Assembly (NCBI GenBank): GCA_005773635.1
Contig: SXHN01000079.1
Location: 5,304-69,303, forward strand
DNA from: Actinomycetota bacterium
GTDB lineage: Bacteria > Actinomycetota > Acidimicrobiia > IMCC26256 > PALSA-610
Length of the DNA stretch: 64,000 bases
Direction of reading: 5' to 3'
The position numbers and the translations under genes are program-made. The notes beneath the pieces were generated by a model. That model worked only from the letters and a program-made list of their open reading frames with translations. It did no database searches and had not been told where the DNA came from. Below are positions 4,135-43,074 of the stretch, in pieces; the stretch's first letter is position 1, and each line of letters starts with the position of its first letter.

Positions 4135-6192
<2,058 letters not shown>

Positions 6193-8818: not shown

Positions 8819-8884
8819 TCGTTGTCAACCTGCGCGCCGTAGCATCACGGCGAATCTGAATTTGCTTGAGTATGGAGGTCAGCT

Positions 8885-16299: not shown

Positions 16300-16401
16300 T
16301 GACGAGGTCGAACACACCCCAGCTGGCGCGCAGCTTGTCCGCGCAGTGCGTCACAAATTCTTGAGAGTCGGGCGTTTCCACCGTTCGAGAAGGGTAGCGA
16401 A

Positions 16402-21828: not shown

Positions 21829-21890
21829 TTCGTAGCTGGTATCGGGTATTCGAGATGCCTGCTGTAGACCGAGTCTGACATGCTTGGCGC

Positions 21891-23393: not shown

Positions 23394-24044
23394 CAGCGGG
23401 GCGCGCGGTTTTGGCGCCGGGAACGCGTTTCTTGCAATGCCAAGTTCGAGGGCTGTGTGGGTGCGGGCATGCTCCAACATGGTTGCGGAATCCATCGTGG
23501 AGTGCATCACGACTTGGAGGCCGAGGCCGTCAAGCATCGAAGCGATTCGCCAGGCCGCGTCGCTCGGGCTCGCGCACACAAAGGTGCCGTTAGCAACGCC
23601 GTCGGCGATGACTCGTTCCATCACGTCGACCCAGGTTGAGTCGAGCTCCTGCGAGATTGCCTTCAGCTTCGGGTTGCGTAGAGCTTCCCCCCATGCGTCA
23701 ATCCACAGTTTCCAGCTCACATCGGATGGCCCCGGTAGATACTCGCGAAGTGTGCGGTCGATGCGTTCGATCGGATCGCGTCCCAGCGCGACAGTGTGTT
23801 CTAGCCTCAATAGGTCGAGATCTGCTGCGTACCGGAGGGTCTCGCTCAGTAGTTCGTCTTTCGACGAAAAGTGATAGTGGATGAGCCCGGTTGACACCCC
23901 CAGTGAGGACGCGACGTCGGTGATTCGAGTACCGGCGAATCCGAATTGCAGCACCAGCGTGTGGGTCGCGCGCAGGATCTCCTCTCGGCGCTGATCCGGC
24001 AAGAATCGATTGCGGGTGCGTCGGTTCTTCGCGCCTTGCGTCAC
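23388..24044 (-). CDS. TetR family transcriptional regulator
   Basis: N-terminal HTH ...REEILRATHTLVLQFGFAGTRITDVASSLGVSTGLIHYHFSSKDELL. Its 3' end overlaps the esterase stop by 6 nt, and it is divergent from the ABC ATPase gene. Confidence 0.85.
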   Translation of the reverse strand: MTQGAKNRRTRNRFLPDQRREEILRATHTLVLQFGFAGTRITDVASSLGVSTGLIHYHFSSKDELLSETLRYAADLDLLRLEHTVALGRDPIERIDRTLREYLPGPSDVSWKLWIDAWGEALRNPKLKAISQELDSTWVDVMERVIADGVANGTFVCASPSDAAWRIASMLDGLGLQVVMHSTMDSATMLEHARTHTALELGIARNAFPAPKPRAPLS

Positions 24045-24158
24045 GTGGTCACTGTACTGATTTATGGGCTTGCACTCGGATTGTCAGCATTGGTCACAAC
24101 GCTCTAGGTGTGCGAAGCGATTGGTTGCACGGATCGTCGCTTTCGAAGATAATGCGCT

Positions 24159-25310
24159 GTGCCTACTTCACGATCTGGCGGAGAAATCGAACTTCGAGGC
24201 CTTTCGAAGCGTTTCGGTGATTTCGTGGCGCTTGACGCCATTGACCTCGATGTTCACGGCGGCGAGTTCTTCAGCCTGCTCGGCCCGTCGGGGTGCGGTA
24301 AAAGCACCACCTTGCGCCTGATTGGGGGCTTCGAGGCGCCCACAGCTGGAGTGGTGCGAGTTGATGGCATCGATTTGGCCTCCACTGCGGCCCATAACCG
24401 TCCGGTGAATACGGTGTTTCAGAGTTATGCGCTGTTCCCGCATATGTCGGTTGAAAAGAACGTCGCCTATGGACTTCGATGGCGCGATGGAGTCACCAAG
24501 GCCGAACGGATTCGGCGTGTCGGTGAAGCCATTGCGATGGTCGAACTCCAAGGCCTTGAGCAGCGACGCCCAGCGCAGTTATCAGGTGGGCAACAACAGC
24601 GAGTGGCGTTGGCGCGCGCGTTGGTCTTGAAACCGTCGGTCTTGTTGCTCGACGAGCCGCTGGGCGCGCTTGATGCGAAGTTGCGCAAAACCCTCCAACA
24701 CGAACTCTCAACGCTCCAGCGTGACGTTGGAATCACCTTCGTCTATGTCACCCACGATCAGGAAGAAGCACTCACGATGAGTGATCGGCTTGCAGTGATG
24801 GATCGCGGCCGTATCGTGCAGATCGGTACACCTAAAGAGGTCTATGAGTCGCCAGCTACCACCTACGTCGCGGATTTCCTTGGAGTGGCGAATTTGCTGG
24901 ATGCCGTGGCAGTGGATGACACGACAGTATTGGTGAGCGGCGTCGCGCTGCGAGCTGAAGTTGGCGTTGTACGCGGACCGGTGAAAACGGTCGTTCGTCC
25001 TGAACGAGTTCGCTTGTCGGCCTACGGTTCCGACGAAACGGGTGCGCTCGAATCCAACGCGCTGACCGGCCTCGTAGAACGTGTGGTGTACCTGGGCGCT
25101 ACGAGCCATGTCGTCGTGCGCCTTGCAGACGGAGCGACGGTGCAAGCGATGGTGCCCAACAGCGAGGGTGCCGTGGATGTATCAGCGGGTACTCCAGTTC
25201 GTGTGCAAATTCCCGTTGATGCCATTCGGGTCCTAGTGGCAGACGAGATCGATCTTGTTTCGAGTGAAGCGGGCGAACGCAGTGAACTTGAGGTTCAAGC
25301 TTCGCGTTAG
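24159..25310 (+). CDS. ABC transporter ATP-binding protein, PotA/POPT-family type with a C-terminal TOBE-like domain
   Basis: Walker [11 protein letters not shown]-loop, signature [15 protein letters not shown], Walker B LLLDEP and H-loop. GTG start. Substrate not assignable. Confidence 0.85.
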
Positions 25311-25324
25311 TCATACTTCTACCC

Positions 25325-26416
25325 ATGACGAACGAACCGTTGCGGCTTGGAGTGATCGGCTGCGGGATGATCGCTCAAGCCCATGCTGCAGCGATTCGAT
25401 TGAATGCCGACGATGGTCTCGTTCGTTGCGTTGCGGCCGCCGATCCGAACCCAGATGGCGTTGATCGATTCGCAGCCATTGTCGGTGGTGTTCAGCACCG
25501 TTTCAACGATGGCATGTCGTTGATCGACCATCCCGAAGTTGACGCGGTCGTATTGATTACTCCAACGCGGTTCCACCGCGACTATGTGCTTGCGGTGTGT
25601 GCATCGGGAAAACCACTGTTCAGTGAAAAGCCGCTGGCTCCTACGTTCGATGTGGTGCGCGAACTGTGTGGAGCGGTGCGTACTAGTGGTATTTCTGCGC
25701 AAGTTGGGTTTCAATCCAGGTTTCATCCGATCGTTCGTCGGCTCAGGGAGATTGTCAACACAGGTGAGCTCGGTGCTCCAATGGGGTACTCGTTGCGCGA
25801 CGATCAGTATTGGCCGACCGGCGACGTTGTTCCGGGTCACACAAGTTGGCGCTCGGATCTGTTCGAATCGGGGGGCGGTGCGCTGCTCGAACATTCGATC
25901 CACTCGTGCGATGTGTTGGCGTGGCTCTTTGGCCCGGCAATTCGCGTGTTCGCGACGAAACGTCATGTATTCGGCTATTCGGTTGAAGACACCGCAGCGA
26001 TGACAATCGAGCATGTTGGCGGTGTCATTGGGAACCTCGTGACGATCTTCAATGGGGTTCGAGGCCGAGAAGAACGTCGCCTTGAGGTGTTTTTCGAACG
26101 CGGCACAATCGAGCTGACCACCGATTTCTTGGTAGGGGCGCCCGAAGATTCTCTTTTGATTCAGCGACCAGATCAACCTCCGGAGCGCATCGACGTCGCG
26201 GCACTGCGGGGCGACTGGTTTAAGAGGGACGGTTGCGACCCTGAACGGCAATACTTCGTGTATCAATACTTTGCCCATCGAGCCTTTGCGCAGGCGCTGC
26301 GCGACAACACGCCGATGAGCCCGGGCTTCGAAGACGCACTCCTTGCGCATTCGATCGTGGAGGCGGGATACCGATCCTGCGACTCAGGGATGCCGGTGTT
26401 GGTCAGCGATCTCTGA
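25325..26416 (+). CDS. Gfo/Idh/MocA family oxidoreductase
   Basis: N-terminal Rossmann LRLGVIGCGMIAQAHA, then the EKPLA motif (SEKPLAP); 363 aa. Starts 15 nt after the ATPase stop. Confidence 0.85.
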   Translation: MTNEPLRLGVIGCGMIAQAHAAAIRLNADDGLVRCVAAADPNPDGVDRFAAIVGGVQHRFNDGMSLIDHPEVDAVVLITPTRFHRDYVLAVCASGKPLFSEKPLAPTFDVVRELCGAVRTSGISAQVGFQSRFHPIVRRLREIVNTGELGAPMGYSLRDDQYWPTGDVVPGHTSWRSDLFESGGGALLEHSIHSCDVLAWLFGPAIRVFATKRHVFGYSVEDTAAMTIEHVGGVIGNLVTIFNGVRGREERRLEVFFERGTIELTTDFLVGAPEDSLLIQRPDQPPERIDVAALRGDWFKRDGCDPERQYFVYQYFAHRAFAQALRDNTPMSPGFEDALLAHSIVEAGYRSCDSGMPVLVSDL

Positions 26417-26421
26417 GCAGA

Positions 26422-27312
26422 TCAGACGTCGAGCCCAGCAAAATCCTCTACTACGCTGCCCGTCGTGCCGTTGTGACGGCGCCAGAGCTTGAGGCCAGCC
26501 ATTGCGAACAAGATCGCGAGCAGCGTCACCGCCAACATGATTGTCGCAAGCGCGTTGACCGCCGGGGTTTGCGTGCCGCGAAATGAGTTGTAGATCTTCA
26601 TCGGCACAGTCTCGCTACTCGCATCTGCCGACAGAAACTGACTCACCACAAAGTCGTCGATGCTCGTCGCGAATACCACCATCAACGAGGCGAAAATGGC
26701 CGGGCTGAGCAATGGCATGATGATTGTGCGCAGAGCCTGCATCGGCGTTGCACCGAGATCCTGCGCGGCATCCTCAAAGTCGCGGCCCAAGGTGAGTAGT
26801 CGCCCTCTGACCACAATGACGACCGTTGAAAGGCTCAACGTGACATGCCCAAGCAGTTGGGCAGTAGAGCCGAGTTGAATCGCGGTAAACATCGTGGTGA
26901 AGCACAGGTACAGCGCGCTTGCGAACACGATCTCGGGAGTCACGAGCGGAACAAGCATCAACATGTTGGCGGGTTTTTGGCCGTAGCCGCGCCAACGGGT
27001 GAGCCCGATGGCCATTGCCACGCCGAGCGGCGCACAGATGGCCATGGTAAGCAGCGCCAGCTTGATTGAATTGCCAAGCGCATTGTGCAGCGTTGCGTCG
27101 TGCCACACCGAGCGGTTCGGGTCTCCCCAATACCAACGAGTCGAGAAACCTTGCCAGGTACTGCGCGAACGCCCCTTGTTGAACGAGAATTGAATTGCAA
27201 CGATTACCGGCACGATGGCCCACGCAAGGTAGAGCCATGTCACGGCGGCGAGCACCCGTGGTTTACGCCAGGGGTTCGACCACCACCGGCCGATGGGGCC
27301 AAGGATGTTCAT
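26422..27312 (-). CDS. ABC transporter permease (PotC-like)
   Basis: Six TM segments and the EAA loop FEDAAQDLGATPMQALRTIIMPL. Its start overlaps the stop of the upstream permease. Confidence 0.85.
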   Translation of the reverse strand: MNILGPIGRWWSNPWRKPRVLAAVTWLYLAWAIVPVIVAIQFSFNKGRSRSTWQGFSTRWYWGDPNRSVWHDATLHNALGNSIKLALLTMAICAPLGVAMAIGLTRWRGYGQKPANMLMLVPLVTPEIVFASALYLCFTTMFTAIQLGSTAQLLGHVTLSLSTVVIVVRGRLLTLGRDFEDAAQDLGATPMQALRTIIMPLLSPAIFASLMVVFATSIDDFVVSQFLSADASSETVPMKIYNSFRGTQTPAVNALATIMLAVTLLAILFAMAGLKLWRRHNGTTGSVVEDFAGLDV

Positions 27313-28229
27313 CGCACATCCTTGGTGGCAGCGTTGCTTGCGTAAAGGTAGTAGCCCATGAGAATCGTCAAAAACAGTGTCAGTGAAAGCACAAGTGCCG
27401 CGCCGACGCCGCGAGATGTTGGCGACTGCACCGCGGATTGAATCTGATTGCCGATCATGTTGGTGCGAGGTGACGACGACAACAGTTGATTGGTGTAGTA
27501 GTCACCGAACATCGGCAATGCTGTGATGGCAGTTGCAGCGAGGATGCCTTGGCGCGCACTTGGCAACGTGACGTGAATAAACGTTCTGATGGTGCCCACT
27601 CCAAGATCTTTCGATGCTTCGAGGAGCCGGGTATCAATGCGGTCAAGGGATGCGAACAACGGGAGAATGAAAAACGGCACGTAGCCGTAGACCAGCCCGA
27701 GCACGATTGTGTACCACCGAGCGTCGAGCCAGTTGATCGGTCCCGACGTGATGTGCAGCGCTGCGAGAATGTCGTTGACGTAGCCGTCCTGTTGCAGCAG
27801 ATTCACCCAGGCCAACATACGCATGAGATACGAAATCCAAAACGGTGCAAGTAACAATGCGAGCATGAGGCCTCGGCGTTTCCCTGCGAAGCGCGCAACG
27901 TAGTAGGCGACCGGGAATCCGATGATGAAACAGAGCGCCATAGCTAACACGACGTATGTGCAAGTGCGCACGAACGGTTGTCCGAACACGCCGCTTTCGA
28001 GTCCGCGCCATACTTCGCGAAACGAATCTGCATTCCAATGTAGAGGGTTCCATTCGGGCTCACGCGCGCCGAAGAGCGGATCGTCGTATCCACTTGCTAT
28101 TGAAACGACGCCGTAGAAAGGGATAGCGAACAGCAGCACCAGCCAAGCGGTTCCCGGGAGCGCAAGTGTGGGCCAGAGCCATCGCGGCCGGCGATGTTCC
28201 ACTGGAGTTGACCGAAAATACTTGTGCAA
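27309..28229 (-). CDS. ABC transporter permease (PotB-like)
   Basis: Six TM segments and the EAA loop LLEASKDLGVGTIRTFIHVTLP. Confidence 0.85.
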   Translation of the reverse strand: MHKYFRSTPVEHRRPRWLWPTLALPGTAWLVLLFAIPFYGVVSIASGYDDPLFGAREPEWNPLHWNADSFREVWRGLESGVFGQPFVRTCTYVVLAMALCFIIGFPVAYYVARFAGKRRGLMLALLLAPFWISYLMRMLAWVNLLQQDGYVNDILAALHITSGPINWLDARWYTIVLGLVYGYVPFFILPLFASLDRIDTRLLEASKDLGVGTIRTFIHVTLPSARQGILAATAITALPMFGDYYTNQLLSSSPRTNMIGNQIQSAVQSPTSRGVGAALVLSLTLFLTILMGYYLYASNAATKDVR

Positions 28230-28250
28230 CGCGATTACTTTGCCCGTGGG

Positions 28251-29546
28251 CTAACTGCCCGCACCGCTGGTGAACTTCGCCCACTCATCTTCCCAAATTT
28301 TCTTACCCTTGGGCGAAAGTTGAAGCTCTTCATAGCCGTTCACGAAGTCTTGTTCTCGCACGACTGCAGTCAGCAGATTTTCGGGGATCACGCCGTCTTC
28401 GATGAGCGTCTCAGGAGTGATCGCCGTGAGCGGTTGCTGGTAGCCCGTGAACCCAATGTTCGTTCTTGCGTTGGTTTCATCGAGAATAAAATTGAGGAAT
28501 CGGTGTGCCAACACGGGTTTCGCGGCCTTGCGCCCAATGGTCCAACTGTCGCTTTGGATCAACCCTTTTCCATCGGGTTGGAACCAGTAGCCGAGTACCT
28601 CCGGGCCAAGATCCTCCGGAAGGTTGTACACGGCGTTGATCATGTCGCCGCTCCAGGTTTGGTGCACCCAGGCTTGGCCCTCGGGTAGTTTCGTGTAGCC
28701 CTGGCCGCTGATCTTTATGTTGACTGCACCGACCATTCGCTGCAACTCGGTGCCTGCTTTTGCGATGATTGCGGGGTCTTCAGTGTTGACATCAGTGAAG
28801 CCGAGGCGAAGCAACGCCATGGACAGCGCCTCACGGTCATCGTCAAGTACGAACGCGTAACCTTTGTGTTTCCGGTTGAACAGCATGTCAGTTGCGTCGG
28901 CAACCGTGGGCGGCGCGTCCGAAGGGTCTACTTTGTCAGTGCGATAGCCAATGCCCGTCGTGTAGATCGTGTACGGGATCGTGTACTGCGAGCCTTTGTC
29001 GTAGAACGGGTCTTGCAGCGAAGCCCAGACGTTGCTGAGATTTGCGATGTACGTTTTGTTCAGAGGTTGAATTAATCCGGCCGCCGCCAAAGTACCGAGC
29101 CGGTCGGGAGACATGTTGATGAGATCGAAATTCGCGGCGCCGCTTTGTAGTTTGTCGACTGCTTCGTTGATGTTCGCGAACGTCGTGAGCTCGACTTTGA
29201 CTTTGTATTCTTTTTCGAATGTCTTGACGGTTTCGGGGTCGAGATAGTCGGCATAGTTGAAGATCTTGAGCGTGCCGGATTCTGGATCAAGCCCATCTTT
29301 GATGGGATCGGCGCACAGTGGCAAAGTTGCGGGATTGTTTGGTCGCGACAGTTTCGGCGGCTCTCCGCACTTCGCATTGCCGCTCGGACCGCCTTGAGAC
29401 GTCGACACGGGGTCTTTGGAGTCGCTCCCGCACGCACTTAATAGTGTTGCGCCGCCGCCGAGCAGCAACGCGGTTGTCGCTGAATGGCGAAGGAACTCGC
29501 GACGGTCGTAGCTGCGTCTGCCGGTTGTTTCGCGACGATCGGCCAT
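28251..29546 (-). CDS. ABC transporter substrate-binding lipoprotein (polyamine/opine/phosphonate family-like), Tat-type signal
   Basis: The twin-arginine-like N-terminus (DRREFLRHSATTALLLGGGATLLSAC) ends in a lipobox Cys. The 431 aa type-2 SBP is encoded directly upstream of the PotB/PotC-like permeases. Confidence 0.8.
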   Translation of the reverse strand: MADRRETTGRRSYDRREFLRHSATTALLLGGGATLLSACGSDSKDPVSTSQGGPSGNAKCGEPPKLSRPNNPATLPLCADPIKDGLDPESGTLKIFNYADYLDPETVKTFEKEYKVKVELTTFANINEAVDKLQSGAANFDLINMSPDRLGTLAAAGLIQPLNKTYIANLSNVWASLQDPFYDKGSQYTIPYTIYTTGIGYRTDKVDPSDAPPTVADATDMLFNRKHKGYAFVLDDDREALSMALLRLGFTDVNTEDPAIIAKAGTELQRMVGAVNIKISGQGYTKLPEGQAWVHQTWSGDMINAVYNLPEDLGPEVLGYWFQPDGKGLIQSDSWTIGRKAAKPVLAHRFLNFILDETNARTNIGFTGYQQPLTAITPETLIEDGVIPENLLTAVVREQDFVNGYEELQLSPKGKKIWEDEWAKFTSGAGS

Positions 29547-29621
29547 GTGTGCCTCTCCAACCCAAGGAGTTAACTGAACGGTCAGTCAGACCGTAGCTCA
29601 AATGGTCCGTCCGATCCACCC

Positions 29622-30959
29622 CTAGCTGGCCACGCGGTGGTCGCTCGCGTCGAGCGCGCAATCCCCCTGGGTCGCGTCGCAGATCGCGGCGCCGAGGATC
29701 TGCACGGATATCGCGATTTGCTCCCGACTTACAATGAGCGGTGGTGCCAGTCGGATCGACCGTTCTCCGCAGGTGAGCACGAGTAATCCTCTGCGAAACG
29801 CAGCTTGTTCGGCGGCAGCCGCGATCTCGTGAGTTTCGAAGTCGATGCCAACCATCAGCCCTCGTCCCCGAATATCCGTGATGGCAGGGCATACGGTCGC
29901 GAGTTGTTGGAGCTGAAATTGCAGATGAGCGCCCATCGATTGTGCGTTGGCAATTGCTGACCCCTCGAGCACGTCGAGCGTTGCGATTGCCGCGGCGCAC
30001 GCAACGGGATTTCCGCCAAATGTCGAACCGTGTTTACCGGGCCCCCATGTCATGAAACGGTCACGAGCTAGTAGTGCCGCGAGCGGGAGACCACTCGCGA
30101 TTCCCTTGCCAGCGAGGAGCATGTCGGGTGCAACGTTGTCGTGTTCGATGGCCCACATCCGGCCGGTGCGTCCCGCGCCCGATTGCACTTCATCCGCGAT
30201 CAACACAATTCCGTGGGTGTCGCATATGCGTCGTAATTCAGCCATCCAGCCTTGCGACGGTACGACGTATCCGCCTTCGCCCTGGATTGGTTCGACAATG
30301 ATTGCGGCGACGTCGGTGGGTTCGCTGAGATGGCGAAATATCACCGACTCGATGTAGCCCGGGTCGCCGTACGGAGCGTGGTACACGCCGGGCATCATGG
30401 CGCCGAAGCCACCGCGGTATTTCGCTTTGCTTGCTGTCAGCGAGAGTGCTCCCAGCGAGCGGCCGTGGAACGCGCCATGAAAGGCAATGATATTGGGGCG
30501 CTTTGTGGTGTACCTAGCGAGTTTGATTGCAGCTTCCACTACCTCGGTTCCGCTGTTGCCGAGAAACACCTTCGACGGTCCCATGCCGTGTGGCGCCGAC
30601 GCAACCAATCGCTCACACAACTCGATATACGCAGGCACGTACCAATCGCTAGAGCAATAGTGGAGGAGTTCATTGCTTTGTTTCGCGATTGCGGCGACCA
30701 CAGCTGGATGGCAGTGGCCTGTGCTGTTGACGGCAATGCCCGCGTTGAAGTCGAGGAATCGATTGCCATCGACGTCTTCGATCACCAAGCCGGACGCGCG
30801 CTTCGGAACGAGGGGGTAGACGCGACCGAGACAGGAGCTGACACTGAGCGCGTCGCGTTCGATGAACGCTCGTGCTATTGGGCCTGGGAGTTCAGTGCGC
30901 AGTGCGGGTGCGTTGCATGCTGCGAGTGCTTGGGCCGTCGTCGTTGTCATTGTCGTCAT
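29622..30959 (-). CDS. class III (omega-) aminotransferase, GabT/putrescine aminotransferase-like
   Basis: Motifs …FHGRS…, DEVQSGAGRTG and STFGGNPVACAA. ATG at 30959 has AAGAGGAAC upstream and avoids a 59-nt overlap with the upstream gene; the track start is 31037. Confidence 0.85.
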   Translation of the reverse strand: MTTMTTTTAQALAACNAPALRTELPGPIARAFIERDALSVSSCLGRVYPLVPKRASGLVIEDVDGNRFLDFNAGIAVNSTGHCHPAVVAAIAKQSNELLHYCSSDWYVPAYIELCERLVASAPHGMGPSKVFLGNSGTEVVEAAIKLARYTTKRPNIIAFHGAFHGRSLGALSLTASKAKYRGGFGAMMPGVYHAPYGDPGYIESVIFRHLSEPTDVAAIIVEPIQGEGGYVVPSQGWMAELRRICDTHGIVLIADEVQSGAGRTGRMWAIEHDNVAPDMLLAGKGIASGLPLAALLARDRFMTWGPGKHGSTFGGNPVACAAAIATLDVLEGSAIANAQSMGAHLQFQLQQLATVCPAITDIRGRGLMVGIDFETHEIAAAAEQAAFRRGLLVLTCGERSIRLAPPLIVSREQIAISVQILGAAICDATQGDCALDASDHRVAS

Positions 30960-30978
30960 GGTGGGTTCCTCTTTTGGT

Positions 30979-32544
30979 CTATTTCGTGGGCCAACGGGGG
31001 CTGGTGGTGCGCGGCGGGTAGAGGGCCGCTTTGACATGCAGGAGTGAGGGTGCGTTTCGGGAAGCCGCCTGTGTGAGAGCGTGCTGGTAGTCCGATCCGA
31101 CCCCGCTGATGAGAGTCGCGTCGATTCCGAATCCCTCTGCCACCTTCACGAAATCCACGGGCTGCAGCTCGCAGCCGTCGAGCTCCTCATGTGGAAACCG
31201 AAGCATTCCGTAGCCACCATCATCGATGACAATGATGGTGATCGGTAGCTGTTCCTGAGCCACGGTCGCGAGTTCGCCGATGGCAAAGAGCATTCCGCCG
31301 TCGCCAACGAATGCCGCTGCCGGTCGACCGCTTGTTGCGGCTCCGATTGCCGCTGGGAACGCCCAGCCGAGTGTGCCCCAACCCATCGGGTAGTGCAAAC
31401 CTCGTGGTTCGGCAACGGCGTAGTGGCCAGCCATCCAATACCCGGCGATGCACATATCAGCGAATACAACTGACTTCGCTGGGAGTGCCGACTCCGTGTG
31501 TTCCAAAAACTCAATAGATTCAGCACTATTCGAATCTTGGCGGAGTTCTTCGCGAATTTCTCGTCCGAGTAGCGCGAGGTGGCCAAACCATGGTTTGTTG
31601 CTTGGCAACTGGGCGACGATTTCATTTACTGCTTGGGTATCGGCCGCGATGACCTGATCGAACGTGTAGTTCTTGGCAGCATCGGTCGCGTCGATGTTGA
31701 TCGCCACCCGGCGAGCGGGCAGCGGCAGCCGCCAAGCCATTGTGTTCATTGCATCGAGGTCGGATCCGATAACGATTGCGCCCGTTGCGCGTGCGATGAG
31801 CGACGTCACTTGTGGTTCGTGTGCCGGTGCAGGTACTAGGTGGGGATGTCCGGCTGGGAGCACGCCCCGCGCGGAAAAGGTCGTGACGACGGGTGCTCCG
31901 AGATGTCGTGCCGCGAACTCTATTTGTCGTCCTGCATCTTTTGCCCCACCACCGACAATCAATATTGGTCGGTCGCCGAGCGCAATGTCGATGCGCTCGG
32001 GGTTGTCGACCACGGGTTCCCTTCGCGGTGCGTCAGGAGTGGCCCAGGGTGCCCGCAACAAATCGGTTGGAATTTCGAAGTATGTAGGTCCGTGAGGTGG
32101 TGTGAGTGCAGCGTGAATCGCTGCGTTGATCTCTCGCGTTTGTGCCTTGGTAACTGCCGTAAACATTGATGCTTGGTCGGTGCACTCGTGCAGCACCCCT
32201 CGATATACATCGGGTGTGCGCTGAGTGCTTGGAATGTCGGTGGCGATGACGAGTATGGGGCTTTTGCTCGCCCACGCCTCGCCGACTGCTCCCAAAGTAT
32301 TTGCTGCCCCCGGCCCCGTGGTCACGAGTGCTACTCCGAGTCGACCAGTACTGCGCGCGTACCCATCTGCGGCGTATGCACATCCTTGTTCATGCCGAGA
32401 TCCCACGATGCGAATACCAGCGGCTTTGAAGGCTGGCCACAGAGCCATGTTGTGCACGCCCGGCAGTCCGAACGCGACATCGACATCGACAGCGCGCAAT
32501 GCGGCCGCGATCACTTGCGCGCCGGTTGCGCTCGTATCCATCAC
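30979..32544 (-). CDS. thiamine diphosphate-dependent enzyme, acetolactate synthase-like (possible 2-oxoacid decarboxylase)
   Basis: N-terminal Pyr domain (…GLPGVHNMALW…HEQGCAYAADGYAR…TTGPGAANT) and C-terminal ThDP motif GDGGMLF...(N). At 521 aa it is distinct from the genuine ilvB at 43075. Confidence 0.8.
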   Translation of the reverse strand: MMDTSATGAQVIAAALRAVDVDVAFGLPGVHNMALWPAFKAAGIRIVGSRHEQGCAYAADGYARSTGRLGVALVTTGPGAANTLGAVGEAWASKSPILVIATDIPSTQRTPDVYRGVLHECTDQASMFTAVTKAQTREINAAIHAALTPPHGPTYFEIPTDLLRAPWATPDAPRREPVVDNPERIDIALGDRPILIVGGGAKDAGRQIEFAARHLGAPVVTTFSARGVLPAGHPHLVPAPAHEPQVTSLIARATGAIVIGSDLDAMNTMAWRLPLPARRVAINIDATDAAKNYTFDQVIAADTQAVNEIVAQLPSNKPWFGHLALLGREIREELRQDSNSAESIEFLEHTESALPAKSVVFADMCIAGYWMAGHYAVAEPRGLHYPMGWGTLGWAFPAAIGAATSGRPAAAFVGDGGMLFAIGELATVAQEQLPITIIVIDDGGYGMLRFPHEELDGCELQPVDFVKVAEGFGIDATLISGVGSDYQHALTQAASRNAPSLLHVKAALYPPRTTSPRWPTK

Positions 32545-33989
32545 GCGATCGAATCGCGATTGTCGATTTGAGCTTTTTGTAGGCGACCGGAGTAGTCGAT
32601 GTACACAGACTTCGTCTCGCTGAACTGTTCGAGCCCACGTGATCCTGCTTCGCGATATCCATTGCCAGTGAATTTGTTGCCGCCAAACGGGAGATGGATT
32701 TCGGCACCGATTGTTGGAGCATTGATGTATACGATGCCGGTGTCGAGATCGTGAAGGGCCCGCATTGCATGGTTTACGTCGCGTGTGTAGATCGATGATG
32801 AAAGTCCGTATTCGCAGTCATTAGCAGTTTCAATCGCTTCGTCGAATGAGTCCACTTCAAGAACTGCGAGCACCGGACCGAATACTTCGTTGCGAGTGAT
32901 GAACGAGTTGCGGTGCGCGCCACTCAAGATCGTTGGCGCGTAAAACGATCCGCCGTCGCAGCCTGTTGCAGCAATTGGAGAGCCGCCAAGGAGGAGTTCG
33001 TTGCCTTCGCTCACCGCGGTTTGCACCATGTCGTGAATACGTGCAACTGAGGCTGATGTGATCACGGGACCAACGTCGGTAGTCGCTACTAGTGGATCGC
33101 CGACCATCAACTGAGCGGCACGGCTGGTGACTCGCTGTATGAGCTCATCGATGATCGCTCGGTGTGCAACGAGACGCGATGTCGAAGTGCACCGTTGGCC
33201 CGATGTACCAAAGGCTCCGAAGATCACGCCATCGACCACGAGATCAAGATCCGCGTCGTCCATTACGATCATCGCGTTTTTCCCACCGAGCTCCAACGAC
33301 ACGAGTTTCGGGCCGACTTCCATTGCGGCTGACGCAACTCGCCTGCCGGTTGCGACTGAGCCGGTAAAGGAGATCGCGCGCACACCAGGATGCACAGTGA
33401 GCGCGGCGCCTACGTCACCGAAGCCGTGCACCACGTTGATGAGCCCTTCAGGGGCGCCAGCTTCGATGCACGCGGCGACGAATTGTTCGCAGCACATGGG
33501 TGCGAACTCTGAAGGTTTGATGACGACGCCGTTTCCAGCGAGCAGCGCGGGGAAGATTTTCCATGATGGAATCGCGACTGGGAAGTTCCAAGGCGTGATC
33601 ATTCCCACGACGCCAACCGGGTGCCGCGTTGTGAACCCAAACTTCTCCGGCATCTCGCATGGGTGCACCGTGCCCCAGGCGTTGCGAGCTTGGCCTGCGA
33701 CGAAATGCGCCATATCGATCGCTTCTTGCACGTCGCCGCCGGCCTCCACCAGGATTTTGCCAGCCTCTCGTGATACGAGGTTCGCCAATTCAGCCTTGCG
33801 GCGCGTGAGTACTTCGCCGATCGTGGCGATCACTTCGCCTCGCGCTGGCACGGGAAGCTTGGCCCATGACCGTTGGGCTGCCGTTGCGAACCGTACGGCT
33901 GTCTCCACATCAGTCGCGGTATGGATTGGCATTGATGCCACGATTTCAGCCGGTCGGGCCGGGTTGGTGCTGTCGAACGTCATTGCCAT
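32541..33989 (-). CDS. NAD(P)-dependent aldehyde dehydrogenase
   Basis: ALDH motifs FTGS..tG, catalytic-Glu motif LELGGKN, catalytic Cys in GQRCTS, and EVFGPV. 482 aa; 4-nt overlap with the downstream ThDP gene. Confidence 0.9.
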   Translation of the reverse strand: MAMTFDSTNPARPAEIVASMPIHTATDVETAVRFATAAQRSWAKLPVPARGEVIATIGEVLTRRKAELANLVSREAGKILVEAGGDVQEAIDMAHFVAGQARNAWGTVHPCEMPEKFGFTTRHPVGVVGMITPWNFPVAIPSWKIFPALLAGNGVVIKPSEFAPMCCEQFVAACIEAGAPEGLINVVHGFGDVGAALTVHPGVRAISFTGSVATGRRVASAAMEVGPKLVSLELGGKNAMIVMDDADLDLVVDGVIFGAFGTSGQRCTSTSRLVAHRAIIDELIQRVTSRAAQLMVGDPLVATTDVGPVITSASVARIHDMVQTAVSEGNELLLGGSPIAATGCDGGSFYAPTILSGAHRNSFITRNEVFGPVLAVLEVDSFDEAIETANDCEYGLSSSIYTRDVNHAMRALHDLDTGIVYINAPTIGAEIHLPFGGNKFTGNGYREAGSRGLEQFSETKSVYIDYSGRLQKAQIDNRDSIA

Positions 33990-34073
33990 TAGGGCCTTTG
34001 CAGTCGATTGTTTGCGGGATGTCAGGTGCGGGAATTGTTATTCCGAAGTCTGCAACAGTGTAACGTATGTTCC

Positions 34074-34931
34074 ATGACATCGACACGATCCGTCATGGAA
34101 TTGATTGCGGATGCGGCGTCGTTGCTGACCGTGTCCGAACGCAAAGTGGCCGAGGCGATCCTTGAAGACCCCAAGATTGTGGCATTCGGGACGGTGGCGC
34201 AGCTGGCGAGCCGGGCGGGGAGCAGCGGGCCGACGGTACTTCGCCTAGCAGCGAAGCTTGGTTTCGTAGGCTTCGTCGATCTTCAAGCTGCGGTGCAGGA
34301 AAATATCGCTGACCAGCTCCGACCCGCGACGCAACGAATTCGCGAGCGCCGCTCGGGGGATCTCATTGCAAATGCTCTGCATGCCGATCTCGACAACGTG
34401 CGGCGCACCCTTGAGCAGATTGACCCGAACGACTTTGCTGAGACCGTCGAGCTAGTTGCTGATCGGCGTCACAAGGTATTCGTGATGGCGAGTGAATTGT
34501 CTGGTTCGGCCGGACGCTTGTTGGCGCAACAACTCGATTTGTTGCGAGATGGCATCGTGCTGATTGATGGGCCAGGACCGAGCGTGAGTCGCAAACTCGT
34601 CGACGTCGAAGCTGGCGATGTTGTGCTGGTATTCGATCTGCGCCGCTACGAGCAGTGGGTGCTCGCCGCGACCGAGCGTGTTGACGAGCATGGAGCACTG
34701 GTTGTGGCGATTACCGATTCGCGTTTGTCGTCGCTCGCGCAGCACGCGCGATATGTCTTTACGATTGCTGCGCGCGGAGCCGGGCCCTTTGATAGCGCGA
34801 CCGGTGGCATGGCGTTTGTGCACGCTTTTGGTGCCGCAACCGCCGCACGTCTGCGGCGCAGCGCGACGGTGCGGCTTGATCAAATTGAAGCGAGCTGGGC
34901 GGCCGGCGGCGACCTCATCGGCGACCGGTAG
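34074..34931 (+). CDS. MurR/RpiR family transcriptional regulator (HTH + SIS domain)
   Basis: N-terminal …LTVSERKVAEAILEDP…VAQLASRAGSSGPTVLRLAAKLGF.GF..L, followed by a SIS-like domain. Divergent from the ALDH operon; trimmed to the ATG at 34074. Confidence 0.8.
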   Translation: MTSTRSVMELIADAASLLTVSERKVAEAILEDPKIVAFGTVAQLASRAGSSGPTVLRLAAKLGFVGFVDLQAAVQENIADQLRPATQRIRERRSGDLIANALHADLDNVRRTLEQIDPNDFAETVELVADRRHKVFVMASELSGSAGRLLAQQLDLLRDGIVLIDGPGPSVSRKLVDVEAGDVVLVFDLRRYEQWVLAATERVDEHGALVVAITDSRLSSLAQHARYVFTIAARGAGPFDSATGGMAFVHAFGAATAARLRRSATVRLDQIEASWAAGGDLIGDR

Positions 34932-34958
34932 CGCACGTAACGACACTCCCAGCGCGAC

Positions 34959-36638
34959 TCAGCAATTGGTGATCGCGCCGGTTTCCGCCCCTTGCGCGAG
35001 CTTCGCGTACTTCGCGAGGAAGCCTGAGGTATATAGCGGTTCGGGGATCTTCCAGTGCTTGCGGCGCTCAACGAGTGTGGCTTCATCCACCATGAGATCG
35101 ATCGTGTAGTTCTCGGCGTCGATCAGGATGCGGTCGCCGTCTTCGACGAACGCGATCGGGCCACCATCGACTGCTTCCGGGGCAACGTGACCCACGCAAT
35201 ACCCGTGCGTGCCTCCCGAGAAGCGACCGTCGGTAATGAGTGCTGCGTCTGCGCCGCGGCCAGCGCCTTTCATTGCGCCAGTTACCGCCAGCATCTCGCG
35301 CATGCCGGGCCCTCCCTTCGGGCCCTCGTAGCGAATCACCACGATGTCTCCGGCATTGATCTTGCCCGCGAGAATTGCTTCCATTGCGAGTGGTTCGCCG
35401 TTGAACACCCGTGCCGTGCCGTCGAAGTGCAGGTTGTCAATACCTGCCACCTTGACGACGGCGCCTTTGGGGGCCATCGTGCCGTGGAGAATCGCGATAC
35501 CGCCCTGCGCGTGGATTGGCGCGTTCAGTGGATGCACCACATCGCCATCGGCGCCAGGAGGCGCGAGTGCTTCGAGGTTCTCCGCCATCGTTTTGCCGGT
35601 CACGGTCATGCAGTCGCCGTGCAGCAATCCCTCATCGAGCAGTATTTTCATGATGACGGGGATCCCGCCAATTCGGTCGACGTCGGTCATGTGATATTTG
35701 CCGTGCGGTTTGGTGTCGGCGATATGGGGGACACGCTTGCCAATCTTGTTGAAATCAGCAAGCTCGAGTTCGACGCGGGCTTCGTGCGCGATCGCCAACA
35801 GGTGCAGCACTGCGTTGGTGGAACCTCCGAGTGCCATCACCACTGCAATTGCGTTCTCGAACGCTTCCTTCGTCATGATCTGGCGAGCGCGTAAATCTCG
35901 TTCGATGAGGTTCATCACGGCACGACCCGATTCGTACGCGTAGTCGTCGCGACGACGGTCGACTGCGGGCGCGGATGCTGACCCTGGCAAACTCATACCG
36001 AGTGCTTCGCCTACCGCCGCCATCGTGTTGGCCGTGAACATTCCCGCACAGCTTCCCTCAGTGGGGCATGCACGTTTTTCGATCTCACCGAGTTCGTTGA
36101 GGCTGAGAGTTCCGGCGGCGCACGCGCCGACTGCTTCGAACACGCTCACGATATCGAGTGCTTGATCTTTGTAGTGCCCTGGCAGAATCGAGCCGCCGTA
36201 CATGAAGATGCTCGGTAGATTGAGGCGCGCCGCGGCCATCAACATTCCGGGCAGGCTTTTGTCGCATCCTGCGAACGTCACCAATGCATCGAGCCGTTCT
36301 GAATGCATGACGCATTCGACCGAGTCGGCAATGATCTCTCGACTTGCAAGGGAGCCCCGCATGCCCTCATGCCCCATCGAAATACCGTCGCTTACTGCGA
36401 TTGTGACGAATTCGAGTGGGAAACCACCAGCGTCTTTGACGCCGCGTTTCGAAGCTTTCGCAAGTCGGTCGAGCGGAAGATTGCAGGGCGTCACCTCGTT
36501 CCAACTCGAAGCCACTCCAACCTGGGCCTTACCCCAGTCGTCGTCGCCCATTCCTACCGCTCGAAGCATGGCGCGGGCCGGGGCGCGTTCCATCCCGTCG
36601 GTGACTTCGTGGCTCATGGGTTTCATCGGGTTCGACAT
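34959..36638 (-). CDS. ilvD: dihydroxy-acid dehydratase
   Basis: Motifs …[12 protein letters not shown]..[12 protein letters not shown].TPCN…, CDKSLPG and GGSTN. Trimmed to the Met at 36638 (559 aa); the upstream 75 codons of the track ORF are non-homologous and run into the neighbouring gene's stop. Confidence 0.9.
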
Positions 36639-38637: not shown

Positions 38638-38695
38638 GGCGGCCGACCTTACCGGTCATTTGGGTCGGTGAGGAGGCTTTCGAGTCGAAGTGCTC

Positions 38696-40390: not shown

Positions 40391-40694
40391 GGTTGGAACC
40401 TACTTTCCGAACCTGGTGAGCGGAGGGTGGCCTGGGTGTTTTTGGATCTGCGCTCATCGACATTCCGTCTGAATGCGAGACGATGAGATGGACTGTGCGG
40501 ATATACGCGTATTGTTCGGATGTGTTGCTGCCAATATCGATGACTATCGCCTGGAATCAGCGATGCGCCGCAATGGCGTGCACGCTGAGACACAAGCCGT
40601 GAGCGTCGGTTGTCGCGCTGGAGCACAGTTGGGCGAGTTTGATATTGAGTTCGAACGGATTGCATCGGTGGTTCCATCGTGAGTTGCCTTCGTT

Positions 40695-42981: not shown

Positions 42982-43014
42982 CGCACGGGCCGTCTCGCGT
43001 CCGTGCGCTGCCAA

Positions 43015-43041
43015 CCCCTCCAGTCGGAGGGGTTTTTGTTT
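43015..43041 (+). terminator. rho-independent terminator of the ilv attenuator
   Basis: CCCCTCC (43015-21), loop AGTC, GGAGGGG (43026-32), followed by TTTTTGTTT. Confidence 0.75.
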
Positions 43042-43074
43042 GCCAAAAATGTTCACCCCAACCGGGAGCATCAC

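Follow-up and report, generated by a model that had tools for sequence, protein, structure and literature searches.

A conserved operon around a putative thiamine-dependent decarboxylase, directly beside a polyamine-type uptake system, in an uncultured Acidimicrobiia bacterium

The window, a stretch of 64,000 nucleotides, contains two modules conserved in Acidimicrobiia that abut in this genome. In the first, an RpiR regulator is divergent to genes for an aldehyde dehydrogenase (ALDH), a thiamine-dependent (ThDP) enzyme and a class III aminotransferase (AT). In the second, genes for a substrate-binding protein (SBP) and for PotB and PotC permeases converge on a PotA-Gfo/Idh/MocA pair, which adjoins a BetI-type TetR gene. 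The AT and SBP genes are only 76 bp apart. We tentatively suggest that the first module encodes a route in the style of AruI, in which a 2-oxo acid would be converted to an aldehyde and then an acid, followed by omega-transamination.

The enzyme operon and its promoter region

Profile searches (Pfam for domain assignment, NCBIfam for family models and cut-offs) recovered all ten genes of a first-pass annotation with the domains it had given, and its gene map was right bar a few start codons, for which we compared the public assembly's own gene calls. The core operon begins with an NAD(P)-dependent ALDH of 482 residues (32541-33989, minus strand; Aldedh, 521 bits), whose stop overlaps the start of the ThDP enzyme by 4 bp (30979-32544, minus strand; 520-521 residues with three TPP domains in Pfam). 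The AT, of the GABA-AT/ornithine-AT type, follows (29622-30959, minus strand; Aminotran_3, 395 bits) and has 445 residues by the assembly's gene caller, not 471. The annotation had named the members of the minus-strand operon correctly but in the wrong order, as they are transcribed ALDH, ThDP enzyme, AT, SBP, PotB and PotC. It had also placed a divergent RpiR regulator upstream, and the RpiR/MurR-family protein found there (278-aa call, plus strand, to 34931) does carry HTH_6 and SIS domains (Pfam, NCBIfam); its start is ATG 34074 or 34095, the latter being used in the public assembly, and not 34008. The neighbouring ILVD_EDD gene (34959-36626) is a true ilvD (846 bits, cut-off 644).

The core was found in about 25 Acidimicrobiia genomes, mostly without a transporter. 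In 21 of 25 loci the ThDP gene is immediately preceded by ALDH, and in at least 20 of the 25 it is followed by either the AT or a second ALDH (ALDH2) and then the AT. ALDH2, which is often present in the core of the relatives, resembles P5C dehydrogenases (395 bits on that model, cut-off 648). The RpiR gene is divergent from ALDH in 14 of 24 loci of the genome scan, and also in L104 and L105. The unit conserved in relatives is therefore RpiR opposite ALDH, ThDP enzyme, optional ALDH2 and AT. While the description of the region as a neighbourhood for amine uptake and catabolism holds, a single operon with its cognate transporter was not upheld, since a transporter lies within 10 kb of the core in none of the 24 related loci scanned.

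The spacer between the RpiR and ALDH genes (84-105 bp) contains two elements, neither assigned a strand. Element E1, AGTGTAACGTATGTTCC (reverse complement GGAACATACGTTACACT; 34057-34073), is nearly invariant in 13 distinct loci, even where RpiR identity is as low as 45%. This imperfect palindrome contains two overlapping divergent -10 boxes, of which TACACT would serve the ALDH operon and TAACGT would serve rpiR. An ATG or GTG abuts this putative promoter element in 12 of 13 relatives, and the rpiR transcript is probably leaderless. Element E2 (34031-34044) is the palindrome GGAATTGTTATTCC noted in the first-pass annotation. The palindrome is present, but by itself it is within chance, as 25 of 100 shuffles match it with at most two mismatches; what recurs is the left half-site, GGAAC(A), which all 13 loci have in the same position, the right arm being kept in the closest relatives only. 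E2, a candidate for a second RpiR site, would fall between about +6 and +20 on the ALDH-operon transcript. RpiR is a probable repressor of the divergent operon, and we expect it to act via two GGAAC-type sites, over the back-to-back -10 boxes and the transcript start. Regulators with SIS domains usually sense sugar phosphates, a property that the model proposed below leaves unexplained.

Relationships of the core enzymes

None of the three core enzymes reaches any NCBIfam equivalog cut-off. Our tree puts the ThDP enzyme in a monophyletic clade of uncharacterised actinobacterial proteins with 100% bootstrap support, apart from AruI-annotated proteins and from IolD, Xsc, AHAS, Gcl, AlsS and Pox. 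Phylogenetic placement, proposed as a check in the first-pass annotation, thus found no clade of known function for it, and the view that it is distinct from the biosynthetic AHAS and lacks an assigned function is borne out; the true ilvB is a separate gene at 43003-44808 (947 bits, cut-off 881). Its sister branch consists of an Arthrobacter ThDP protein whose gene adjoins one of the agmatinase family (86% bootstrap). At 45-60% bootstrap, the tree supports neither the AruI-annotated proteins nor IolD as the nearer neighbour of the clade. The enzyme's highest NCBIfam scores, 280-286 bits on PRK07524 (AruI), PRK07064 and PRK08266, fall short of the cut-offs of 495-571, and the IolD model does not appear in the top 25. 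On the AruI model itself the enzyme scores 286 bits (cut-off 500) and is outscored by the window's own IlvB (332 bits), so the model ranking is weak evidence.

Among annotated plasmid genes, PGAP entries named 5-guanidino-2-oxopentanoate decarboxylase rank highest, at 29-35% identity, compared to 24-28% for AHAS, IolD, Gcl, Pox, AlsS and Xsc; identity to AruI-annotated proteins spans 28-35%. The ThDP enzyme and the AruI-annotated clade have in common His30 (GxPGVH) and His118-Glu119 (LHE), both motifs missing from AHAS, Gcl, AlsS and Pox. However, the Glu of the GY-x-E-I motif, conserved in AruI-annotated proteins, is Met446 here. The likeness to AruI put forward earlier therefore stands in that the nearest annotated enzymes are AruI-type decarboxylases, but not as identity with AruI. 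We do not take the enzyme for AruI, IolD, Xsc or AHAS, and regard it as a putative non-oxidative 2-oxo-acid decarboxylase.

The ALDH scores best on alpha-KGSA dehydrogenase models (439-443 bits, cut-offs 750-770), then on BADH and P6C dehydrogenase, and its best PDB matches are generic. The AT reaches 523 bits on PRK05769 (cut-off 552), with Pyrococcus 7vno as its best PDB match, and in an alignment it keeps R141, E211, K268 and R398 of E. coli GabT.

The importer module

The TetR-family regulator with a BetI-type C-terminal domain (23388-24044, minus strand; TetR_N and TetR_C_6 in Pfam) is divergent from the PotA-type ATPase (24159-25310, plus strand, 383 residues; ABC_tran and TOBE_2), which passes the potA subfamily model TIGR01187 (369 bits, cut-off 355.6). 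The Gfo/Idh/MocA oxidoreductase assigned by Pfam (25325-26416, plus strand, 363 residues) starts 14 bp past the ATPase stop, and its own stop is 5 bp from that of the convergent PotC-like permease (26422-27312, minus strand, 296 residues; BPD_transp_1, best NCBIfam model PotC at 176 bits). The PotB-like permease (27309-28229, minus strand; BPD_transp_1, best NCBIfam model PotB at 155 bits, below cut-off) is a 306-residue reading frame from TTG, or 276 residues by the assembly's gene caller. The SBP (28251-29546, minus strand, 431 residues; SBP_bac_8 and SBP_bac_1) is of the PotD/PotF family. This confirms the layout described before, with the ATPase on the opposite strand, converging on the permeases beside TetR.

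The SBP had been read as a Tat lipoprotein. Its N-terminus is DRREFLR...LLSAC, with conservation of 90% or more across 30 homologues for the RR motif as well as for the lipobox Cys, so this assignment holds. The protein matches PotD and PotF structures (E 1e-20 to 1e-25) and keeps 9 of 12 PotD ligand residues. Comparison of the pockets, suggested in the first-pass annotation, paired four acidic residues (PotD/SBP E36/D100, D168/D236, E171/E239 and D257/D333) and four aromatic ones (W34/Y98, Y37/Y101, W229/W298 and Y293/Y369). Most of the mapped pocket residues are invariant in the SBP family; D148, D236, E239, W298 and D333 are so in all 30 homologues. The pocket points to a cationic polyamine as ligand, not a phosphonate or opine. 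All four component families of E. coli PotABCD/PotFGHI are present; the differences are that the SBP is a Tat lipoprotein of 431 residues with about 25% identity, that the ATPase is convergent on the other strand with a Gfo/Idh/MocA gene, and that the regulator is a BetI-type TetR, relatives adding GbcA-like Rieske oxygenases and CrtI-like flavoproteins.

Both modules recur in relatives. The importer module is orthologous in L088, L090 and L103 (55-76% identity) with the same order and strands, which makes the "split importer" a feature of the lineage and not, as thought earlier, a local split; PotA also converges on the permease genes in L102. PotB is 69-71%, PotC 71-76% and TetR 62-64% identical to these orthologues, and a Rieske gene precedes TetR in all three. 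The Gfo gene, taken earlier for an insertion, is at the same position in L088 and L103 (72-80% identical) and missing in L090; in L011 and L014 its orthologues adjoin the core AT without a transporter. We would read the module as a polyamine-type ABC importer whose split convergent layout is ancestral.

A palindromic operator, TTACTGACTCGTCAGTCAGTAT, occurs upstream of the SBP gene in L088, L089, L090 and L103, in the PotA-Rieske spacer of L088, L090 and L103, and upstream of an extra AT gene in L088, L089 and L103; one operator would thus stand at the promoters of both importer halves in these relatives. In the window no copy was found in the spacer between TetR and potA. A weight matrix picked out a degenerate copy, TAACTGAACGGTCAGTCAGACC, in the AT-SBP spacer (29571-29592, no strand), which at 8.1 bits is one of two such positions in the 64 kb and below shuffle maxima.

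In L088 and in L104/L089 core and importer share a contig in the same order, separated by 7.7 and 8.4 kb, respectively, and the roughly 8 kb between them contain extra aminotransferase, flavin-oxidase and Rieske genes. The extra aminotransferases, amine-oxidase-like flavoproteins and Rieske oxygenases that separate the modules elsewhere are absent here, and because of this the importer genes follow the AT so closely that transcription from the promoter under RpiR control may run on into them. Consensus scans of the AT-SBP spacer found neither a terminator nor a promoter, and so speak neither for nor against co-transcription.

A proposed route and its alternatives

For the core we infer the order of reactions and the class of substrate by analogy. 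In Pseudomonas aeruginosa the arginine transaminase pathway runs through AruH, AruI and KauB, then GbuA, GabT and GabD. The core would have in common with it an acetolactate-synthase-like (ALS-like) ThDP decarboxylase for an amino-acid-derived 2-oxo acid, an ALDH and a class III GABA-type AT. The ThDP enzyme would decarboxylate such a 2-oxo acid, most plausibly with an omega-amino or similar tail, to an aldehyde, which the translationally coupled ALDH would convert to an omega-amino acid. The AT would then take off the remaining amine with 2-oxoglutarate as acceptor, and in most relatives ALDH2 would oxidise the semialdehyde to a diacid. Flavoproteins could be the partners that make the 2-oxo acid: a CrtI/amine-oxidase-like protein is encoded within 5 kb in 8 of 25 Acidimicrobiia loci, and at least 16 of 59 Amycolatopsis and Solirubrobacterales loci have a gene for a DAO-family oxidoreductase just before that of the ThDP enzyme. 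No oxidase or alpha-aminotransferase for this step is encoded in the 64-kb window, and we know of no step from an imported polyamine to a 2-oxo acid. The same logic, from oxidase or transaminase through 2-oxo-acid decarboxylase and ALDH to an omega-amino acid, is seen in a lysine to 5-aminovalerate route described as artificial (L-lysine alpha-oxidase, KivD and PadA; PMC7900509), although its KivD-type decarboxylase is unrelated and a natural counterpart here is a proposal only.

Unlikely, though the best of the alternatives, is a succinate-semialdehyde node like the cyanobacterial TCA bypass or GABA shunt. In this reading the ThDP enzyme would act as a 2-oxoglutarate decarboxylase, ALDH as a succinate-semialdehyde dehydrogenase (SSADH) and the AT as a GABA or ornithine AT, with the P5C-dehydrogenase-like ALDH2 helping to funnel carbon from ornithine, GABA and glutamate to succinate without 2-oxoglutarate dehydrogenase. 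Cyanobacterial 2-oxoglutarate decarboxylase genes adjoin the SSADH gene, much as the ThDP and ALDH genes are coupled here, and the AT, which would share the aldehyde intermediate, keeps the Arg and Glu residues with which GabT binds 2-oxoglutarate/glutamate. The Amycolatopsis ThDP gene has a DAO-type oxidase on one side and HyuA/HyuB (oxoprolinase family) on the other, neighbours that fit a path from 5-oxoproline through glutamate to 2-oxoglutarate. ALS-like 2-oxoglutarate decarboxylases have been characterised in cyanobacteria (Sll1981, SynPCC7002_A2770 and MaKGD; PMC10418658). However, compared by fragments, MaKGD peptides from published primers (ISNGFAAMG, NDGGYGLIEW) differ from YPMGWGTLG and DDGGYGMLR of the ThDP family, and the reported 2-oxoglutarate-binding Lys386 and Lys471 appear to lack an equivalent here, judging from a motif alignment with partial sequence. 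Additionally SSADH models give the ALDH fewer bits (285-343) than do those for KGSADH or BADH, and the host is actinobacterial.

Ordinary catabolism of putrescine, cadaverine or GABA, with PotFGHI-type uptake, a PatA/GabT-type AT and a PatD/GabD-type ALDH, is improbable. It would account for the SBP pocket, for AT and ALDH families that are those of E. coli PatA, PatD, GabT and GabD, and for an importer directly after the AT gene, but it makes the ThDP enzyme a passenger of unrelated role. Of the core genes, that of the ThDP enzyme is the most constant; it overlaps ALDH and sits between ALDH and AT in over 20 genomes, of which nearly all lack a nearby importer. A passenger would not be expected to retain this position across 53-74% sequence divergence.

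Very improbable is a true AruH/AruI/KauB pathway for arginine or another guanidino compound. Besides the AruI-type relatives and the agmatinase-family neighbour in Arthrobacter, Roseateles has an AruI-ALDH pair with an agmatinase gene. Against this stand the clade, score and Met446 described above, and neither gene tables nor cluster analysis showed a ureohydrolase, an amidinotransferase or an AruH-type aminotransferase of class I/II. Guanidinobutyrase, noted as absent before, is encoded neither here nor in the approximately 25 related loci. The P. aeruginosa route also differs from the core in that here ALDH comes first and the regulator is RpiR, and the transporter is of the polyamine type, compared to the polar-amino-acid type that accompanies aruHI in Phaeobacter and Sinorhizobium.

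We give next to no credence to inosamine, rhizopine or inositol catabolism of the IolD/IolA/IolG/IolR kind, or to aminophosphonates, taurine or opines. In favour of these are a likeness at family level only (ThDP enzyme, ALDH, Gfo/Idh/MocA, RpiR) and a score of the ATPase on PhnT2 as well (371 bits, cut-off 458). Against them, IolD has 24% identity to the ThDP enzyme and branches outside its clade, the Gfo protein reaches 126 of 355 bits on IolG and is encoded on the other strand in the transporter/TetR block outside the RpiR operon, ALDH reaches 294 of 448 on MMSDH (IolA), IolB, IolC and IolE genes are absent, Xsc scores 135 against 620 with no Pta or PhnW/X/A gene, and phosphonates or sulfonates do not suit the acidic pocket of the SBP; the analysis thus did not support these suggestions of the first-pass annotation.

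The AruI-style route remains the reading we tentatively prefer. What the region presents is a conserved three-enzyme operon, built around an uncharacterised, putative thiamine-dependent decarboxylase and lying, in this uncultured Acidimicrobiia bacterium, directly beside a polyamine-type uptake system.

Layout of the two gene modules

Every gene named by the first-pass annotation was verified by ORF listing, Pfam and NCBIfam searches. The core module consists of an aldehyde dehydrogenase (ALDH; 33989-32541, 482 aa), a thiamine diphosphate (ThDP) enzyme (32544-30979, 520-521 aa) and a class III aminotransferase (30959-29622, 445 aa in the public assembly call), transcribed in that order from the minus strand and divergent from a regulator whose N-terminal HTH_6 and C-terminal SIS domains (54.6 and 48.1 bits in Pfam) are those of the RpiR/MurR proteins. 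The ALDH and ThDP genes are co-oriented and overlap by 4 bp. If read as its longest ORF (471 aa from 31037), the aminotransferase gene would run 59 bp into the ThDP gene, and the start at 30959, which is that of the public gene call and lies 19 bp past the ThDP stop, is the more likely of the two. Fourth to sixth on the same strand come a substrate-binding protein (SBP; 29546-28251, 431 aa), a PotB-like permease (28229-27309) and a PotC-like permease (27312-26422). The SBP was described as a Tat lipoprotein, and its N-terminus (DRREFLR...LLSAC) does combine a Tat signal with a lipobox, both kept in the family. Convergent on the permeases are a plus-strand PotA-type ATPase (24159-25310) and, 14 bp past it, a Gfo/Idh/MocA oxidoreductase (25325-26416), with a BetI-type TetR gene (23388-24044, minus strand) divergent from potA. 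The stops of the convergent Gfo/Idh/MocA and PotC genes are 5 bp apart (26416-26422) with no terminator-like structure found there, and the two transcripts would overlap antisense unless termination occurs inside coding sequence.

The host is an Acidimicrobiia bacterium that has not been cultured. The same locus is found, identical, on three metagenome contigs, the longest of 464 kb, and a plasmid megablast with 24000-35000 gave no match. Rfam detects no riboswitch in the window, and terminator and promoter scans gave counts at or under shuffle expectation. Both ilvD (34959-36626) and ilvB (43003-44808; 947 bits against a cut-off of 881) pass curated cut-offs and are housekeeping genes, the latter being separate from the ThDP enzyme as first proposed. 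Membership of the ILVD_EDD gene in a pentonate or Weimberg-type pathway was considered and rejected, as it is a bona fide ilvD, 80-95% conserved, whose position varies among relatives. The flanks (36673-40390 and 19000-23393) are syntenic in relatives and are not evidently made up of pathway genes; they encode an M14 carboxypeptidase (564 aa), an S9 peptidase (654 aa), a carboxylesterase (500 aa) and a PAS-GGDEF signalling protein (942-965 aa). Relatives also carry a small Gfo/Idh/MocA gene (293-309 aa) after the M14 gene, sometimes directly before ALDH.

The ThDP enzyme, its operon and its regulatory DNA

The best NCBIfam models for the ThDP enzyme, PRK07524 (AruI), PRK07064 and PRK08266, score 280-286 bits, far under their cut-offs. 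For the AruI model (NF005712) the score is 286 bits against a cut-off of 500, with relatives from other groups reaching 355-375 bits. As a sign of kinship to AruI this ranking is weak evidence, because the window's own IlvB outscores the ThDP enzyme on the same model (332 bits). The acetohydroxyacid synthase (AHAS, IlvB) model gives 195 bits against 538. The Xsc models give 122-136 bits against 620-676, in a match split into two stretches, and there is no pta gene, the partner of Xsc; the suggestion of taurine catabolism is thus not borne out. Nor is the echo of inositol catabolism, as identity to Rhizobium IolD is 24% (89-93 bits) and IolD is outside the 25 best NCBIfam models; the absence of iolB, iolC and iolE was confirmed by ORF listing, domain search and gene calls. 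Compared with annotated plasmid genes, the enzyme is 29-35% identical to proteins that PGAP names 5-guanidino-2-oxopentanoate decarboxylase, 26-28% to AHAS, 26% to IolD, 25% to Xsc, Gcl and AlsS, and 24% to pyruvate oxidase (Pox).

In a neighbour-joining tree with 300 bootstraps, the ThDP proteins of Acidimicrobiia, Solirubrobacterales, Amycolatopsis, Blastococcus and Prauserella form one clade (100%), whose sister (86%) is an Arthrobacter plasmid protein with a gene adjoining an agmatinase-family gene. The AruI-annotated proteins form a separate clade, with a bootstrap of only 45-60% for the relation between the two, and AHAS/Gcl, AlsS and Pox are kept out of the ThDP clade at 85-86%. Both the ThDP clade and the AruI-annotated proteins have the motifs GxPGVH (His30) and G-x-LHE (His118, Glu119), which are missing in AHAS, Gcl, AlsS and Pox. 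The pocket segments differ, being FADMC(I/V)(A/P)GYW in the ThDP family versus xGDSxQxxYAGN in AruI-annotated proteins, YPMGWGTLG versus NSATGYGxLG, and DDGGYGMLR versus NNxGYxEI, the last including a Glu-to-Met change. Taken together, the scores, tree and motifs therefore place the enzyme, as judged by sequence, as AruI-like in kind and outside the AruI family. The proposed likeness to the AruH/AruI/KauB route thus holds for the shared motifs and fails on the cut-off, the clade and the pathway partners: neither the window nor any of about 25 related loci has an AruH-type class I/II aminotransferase or a ureohydrolase, and the reported lack of a guanidinobutyrase extends to the same set. AruI-annotated genes of Phaeobacter and Roseateles, unlike the ThDP loci here, have AruH-type aminotransferase or ureohydrolase partners beside them.

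We gathered relatives by ThDP homology search, look-ups of the encoding contigs and a scan of one genome per species, and compared the genes they carry using tblastn and a clustering of six-frame ORFs that had passed a cross-locus conservation filter. Among 25 distinct Acidimicrobiia loci with a ThDP enzyme at least 53% identical, 21 have ALDH as the gene just before the ThDP gene, and at least 20 have the aminotransferase, or a second aldehyde dehydrogenase (ALDH2) and then the aminotransferase, downstream of it. ALDH2, of about 520 aa and nearest to P5C dehydrogenases (395 bits against a cut-off of 648), is missing from the window. RpiR is divergent from ALDH in 14 of the 24 loci from the genome scan, and likewise in two further related loci, L104 and L105; none of the 24 has the ABC importer within 10 kb. 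The single minus-strand operon of the first-pass annotation is thus upheld, as a conserved unit, for ALDH, ThDP enzyme and aminotransferase, with the importer no part of this core. The ThDP gene of Amycolatopsis and Solirubrobacterales has a DAO-family flavoprotein gene (SoxB/ThiO/DadA-like) as its direct upstream neighbour and HyuA/HyuB and an SDR downstream, and that of Acidimicrobiia often has a CrtI/amine-oxidase-like flavoprotein gene near it. In Pseudomonas, DauA and AruI follow the logic of a flavin oxidase and then a ThDP decarboxylase, taking an amino acid to a 2-oxo acid and on to an aldehyde.

Some further features of these neighbourhoods can be recorded. The cluster of DAO-family flavoprotein, ThDP enzyme, HyuA/HyuB (hydantoinase/oxoprolinase/caprolactamase family) and SDR is conserved across L036-L087, related loci from the cultured actinomycetes Amycolatopsis, Prauserella, Blastococcus and Streptomyces sp. 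(for example L066:8450-16144), and adjoins genes identified by eye as pqqC/pqqE-like and WS/DGAT-like. In one relative, a TPP riboswitch (L006:1213-1324; 55.1 bits against a gathering score of 54.3) precedes a thiamine pyrophosphokinase gene, which is followed by a ThiB/ThiP/ThiQ-like ABC transporter; this leads straight into the M14-Gfo-ALDH-ThDP operon in the same orientation. The same thiamine gene order occurs in L015, L020, L023, L030 and L032, and thiamine salvage is therefore encoded beside the ThDP enzyme in several relatives. In L029-L032, the matches to PotA next to the ThDP gene could be these same ThiQ-type ATPases.

The spacer between RpiR and ALDH was aligned from 13 distinct loci. 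One element, E1 (GGAACATACGTTACACT; window 34057-34073, reverse complement), varies hardly at all among the 13 and abuts the conserved rpiR start codon, ATG or GTG, at window 34074. The region 34057-34076 contains divergent -10-like hexamers, TACACT and TAACGT, on opposite strands with a 2-bp overlap, and we propose that two promoters lie back to back here and that the rpiR transcript is leaderless. In line with this, relatives have TAGCNT boxes of the leaderless type 6-9 nt ahead of the start codon of the neighbouring M14 gene. The palindrome noted earlier at 34031-34044 (E2) is present, with its GGAAC(A) half alone conserved in all loci. Both E1 and E2 fit a GGAAC-N4-GTTMC-like site and are candidate binding sites for RpiR. 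A second E1-like site upstream of the M14 peptidase gene (40395-40408) was set aside as chance, as it is not conserved in 18 relatives.

The split importer and its candidate operator

The four importer components have PotD/PotF, PotB, PotC and PotA as their best NCBIfam matches; PotA passes its subfamily cut-off (369 bits against 355.6) and the other three are under their equivalog cut-offs. Relatives of this module, found by SBP homology search and by reading their contigs, include orthologous copies in three related loci (L088, L090 and L103) with 55-76% protein identity and matching order and strands, as well as a remoter version (about 50% identity) in L102. The convergent layout of the transporter is thus as described, and because these modules match, the split is a conserved lineage trait and not a local rearrangement. 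The view of the Gfo/Idh/MocA gene as an insertion does not hold either, as it recurs in two of the three orthologous modules (L088 and L103, not L090); in L011 and L014 such a gene is convergent with and adjoins the core aminotransferase without a transporter. A Rieske gene precedes TetR in L088, L090 and L103.

L088 and L104/L089 each carry both modules on a single contig and in the window's order, the aminotransferase and SBP genes being 7.7 kb apart in the former and 8.4 kb apart in the latter. These gaps hold extra class III aminotransferases, amine-oxidase/CrtI-like flavoproteins and GbcA-like Rieske oxygenases, all missing from the window, where the gap is 76 bp. The relatives have two Rieske oxygenase genes per transporter module (L088:6979-8142 and 15758-16933; L090:475-1647 and 7925-9112; L103:6007-7179 and 15589-16728), with none in the window. 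For the two L088 proteins tested, the only match is to GbcA, at 114-182 bits across the Rieske domain, and one Rieske gene is paired with a flavoprotein of 543-547 aa, CrtI/CrtO-like in the L088 copy tested. These genes may cleave or demethylate the imported amine in the relatives.

A palindrome of 20-22 bp, TTACTGACTCGTCAGTCAGTAT, is repeated in the relatives, at as many as three promoter regions in a locus. It is found just upstream of the SBP gene in L088, L089, L090 and L103, in the PotA-Rieske spacer of L088, L090 and L103, and upstream of the extra aminotransferase gene in L088, L089 and L103 (L088:9885-9910, 15725-15750, 6880-6905; L090:3360-3385, 7893-7915; L103:8960-8985, 15557-15580, 5360-5410; L089:9847-9870). 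It is probably the operator of the importer's TetR, and its presence at both halves explains how the split importer could be co-regulated. The sole related site in the window (29571-29592) lies in the aminotransferase-SBP spacer and is one of two positions in 64 kb with at least 8.1 bits on a weight matrix; its support rests on position more than score, because the score is under shuffle maxima. There is no operator of this type in the window's TetR-potA spacer.

To examine the ligand, we mapped the PotD ligand residues onto the SBP by alignment to 8y5h (about 25% identity) and scored invariance over 30 homologues with 47-64% identity. Nine of 12 are kept or conservatively replaced: E36 (D100 in the SBP), D168 (D236), E171 (E239), D257 (D333), W34 (Y98, aromatic), Y37 (Y101), W229 (W298), Y293 (Y369) and S83 (S146), with D236, E239, D333, Y101 and W298 invariant in the family. 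The changes are Y85 to D148, itself invariant, W255 to Q331 and T35 to A99. By these residues the pocket is cation-binding and polyamine-type, with the exact amine not readable from sequence, and it speaks against a phosphonate, a sulfonate, an opine or a sugar as ligand. The aminophosphonate or opine ligands first considered thus find no backing in a pocket that keeps the acidic and aromatic residues of PotD.

Candidate pathways and their meaning

The aminotransferase is nearest to archaeal ornithine/GABA-type enzymes (PDB ID: 7vno; PRK05769, 523 bits against a cut-off of 552) and retains R141, E211, K268 and R398 of E. coli GabT by alignment, a set compatible with 2-oxoglutarate-dependent action on an omega-amino acid. 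The ALDH is under every equivalog cut-off, its best models being KGSADH, BADH, P6C dehydrogenase and aminobutyraldehyde dehydrogenase. In the best supported reading, which we put forward tentatively, the core would take an amino-acid-derived 2-oxo acid, the ThDP enzyme would decarboxylate it, the coupled ALDH would oxidise the aldehyde product, the aminotransferase would transaminate the resulting omega-amino acid, and in most relatives ALDH2 would oxidise the semialdehyde. The second module would import a cationic amine; in the window genome, loss of intervening genes puts the importer behind the aminotransferase gene. Among candidate substrates, 2-oxo acids or cyclic imino acids of the ornithine, lysine or D-proline type leave no step missing. 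A guanidino substrate is improbable, since in none of the loci does the operon have a ureohydrolase gene alongside it.

Somewhat more doubtful is the wider proposal that the clade is a new family of 2-oxo-acid decarboxylases, serving either a natural oxidase/transaminase-decarboxylase-dehydrogenase route or a 2-oxoglutarate decarboxylase/SSADH bypass outside cyanobacteria. For the former, one possibility is the conversion of basic or cyclic amino acids (ornithine, lysine, D-proline-type 2-oxo/imino acids) to omega-amino acids. In either case the operon would be wired to RpiR and, in some genomes, lie beside a TetR-associated split polyamine importer.

That the core is instead a 2-oxoglutarate decarboxylase/SSADH/GABA-aminotransferase node, as in cyanobacteria (PMC10418658), seems unlikely. 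The 4-bp overlap of the ThDP and ALDH genes, and the adjacent upstream ALDH in most loci, resemble the cyanobacterial pair, but the available motif fragments speak weakly against a decarboxylase of that type. The primer-derived MaKGD fragments, a partial sequence aligned by eye, differ from the ThDP family, and the reported 2-oxoglutarate-binding Lys386 and Lys471 align, again by eye, to Gly or Ala. A 57-aa query built from these fragments returned only short fragments, and the structure given for the cyanobacterial enzyme in PMC10418658 is an AlphaFold model, not a solved one. A role of Sll1981 as a 2-ketoarginine decarboxylase was considered and dropped, as the paper checked gave no confirmation of it. 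Minor rivals, all ranking lower, are simple putrescine/GABA catabolism in which the ThDP gene is a passenger, a true AruI function, and Iol, phosphonate or taurine pathways.

The component families are all known, and the chemistry of the five-step decarboxylative reading is a variation on routes already described. Three things are new: an uncharacterised ThDP clade whose gene keeps its place in a constant three- or four-gene operon throughout an uncultured class, its proposed control by RpiR, and a conserved split importer with a probable shared operator. Our literature search found no paper describing the ThDP operon, or the decarboxylative route as natural; an oxidase-decarboxylase-ALDH route to 5-aminovalerate is reported as artificial (PMC7900509). 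We consider the system real and conserved, a functionally unassigned form of a known type of amine catabolism; only well-known families are involved, and current understanding is not overturned by the operon or importer results. The transporter is a tidy case of a split ABC importer tied together by a shared operator.

Soils, sediments and waters hold abundant Acidimicrobiia, hardly any of which have been brought into culture. The conserved, regulator-linked ThDP operon marks a gap in what is understood of their use of nitrogen-rich compounds, and Amycolatopsis, Blastococcus and Prauserella, which share the ThDP clade, offer cultured entry points. A function, once assigned, would annotate hundreds of genes now called acetolactate synthase-like, and would reveal one of two things, a decarboxylative path for amino or imino acids that exists in nature or another lineage, besides the cyanobacteria, that has the 2-oxoglutarate decarboxylase bypass.
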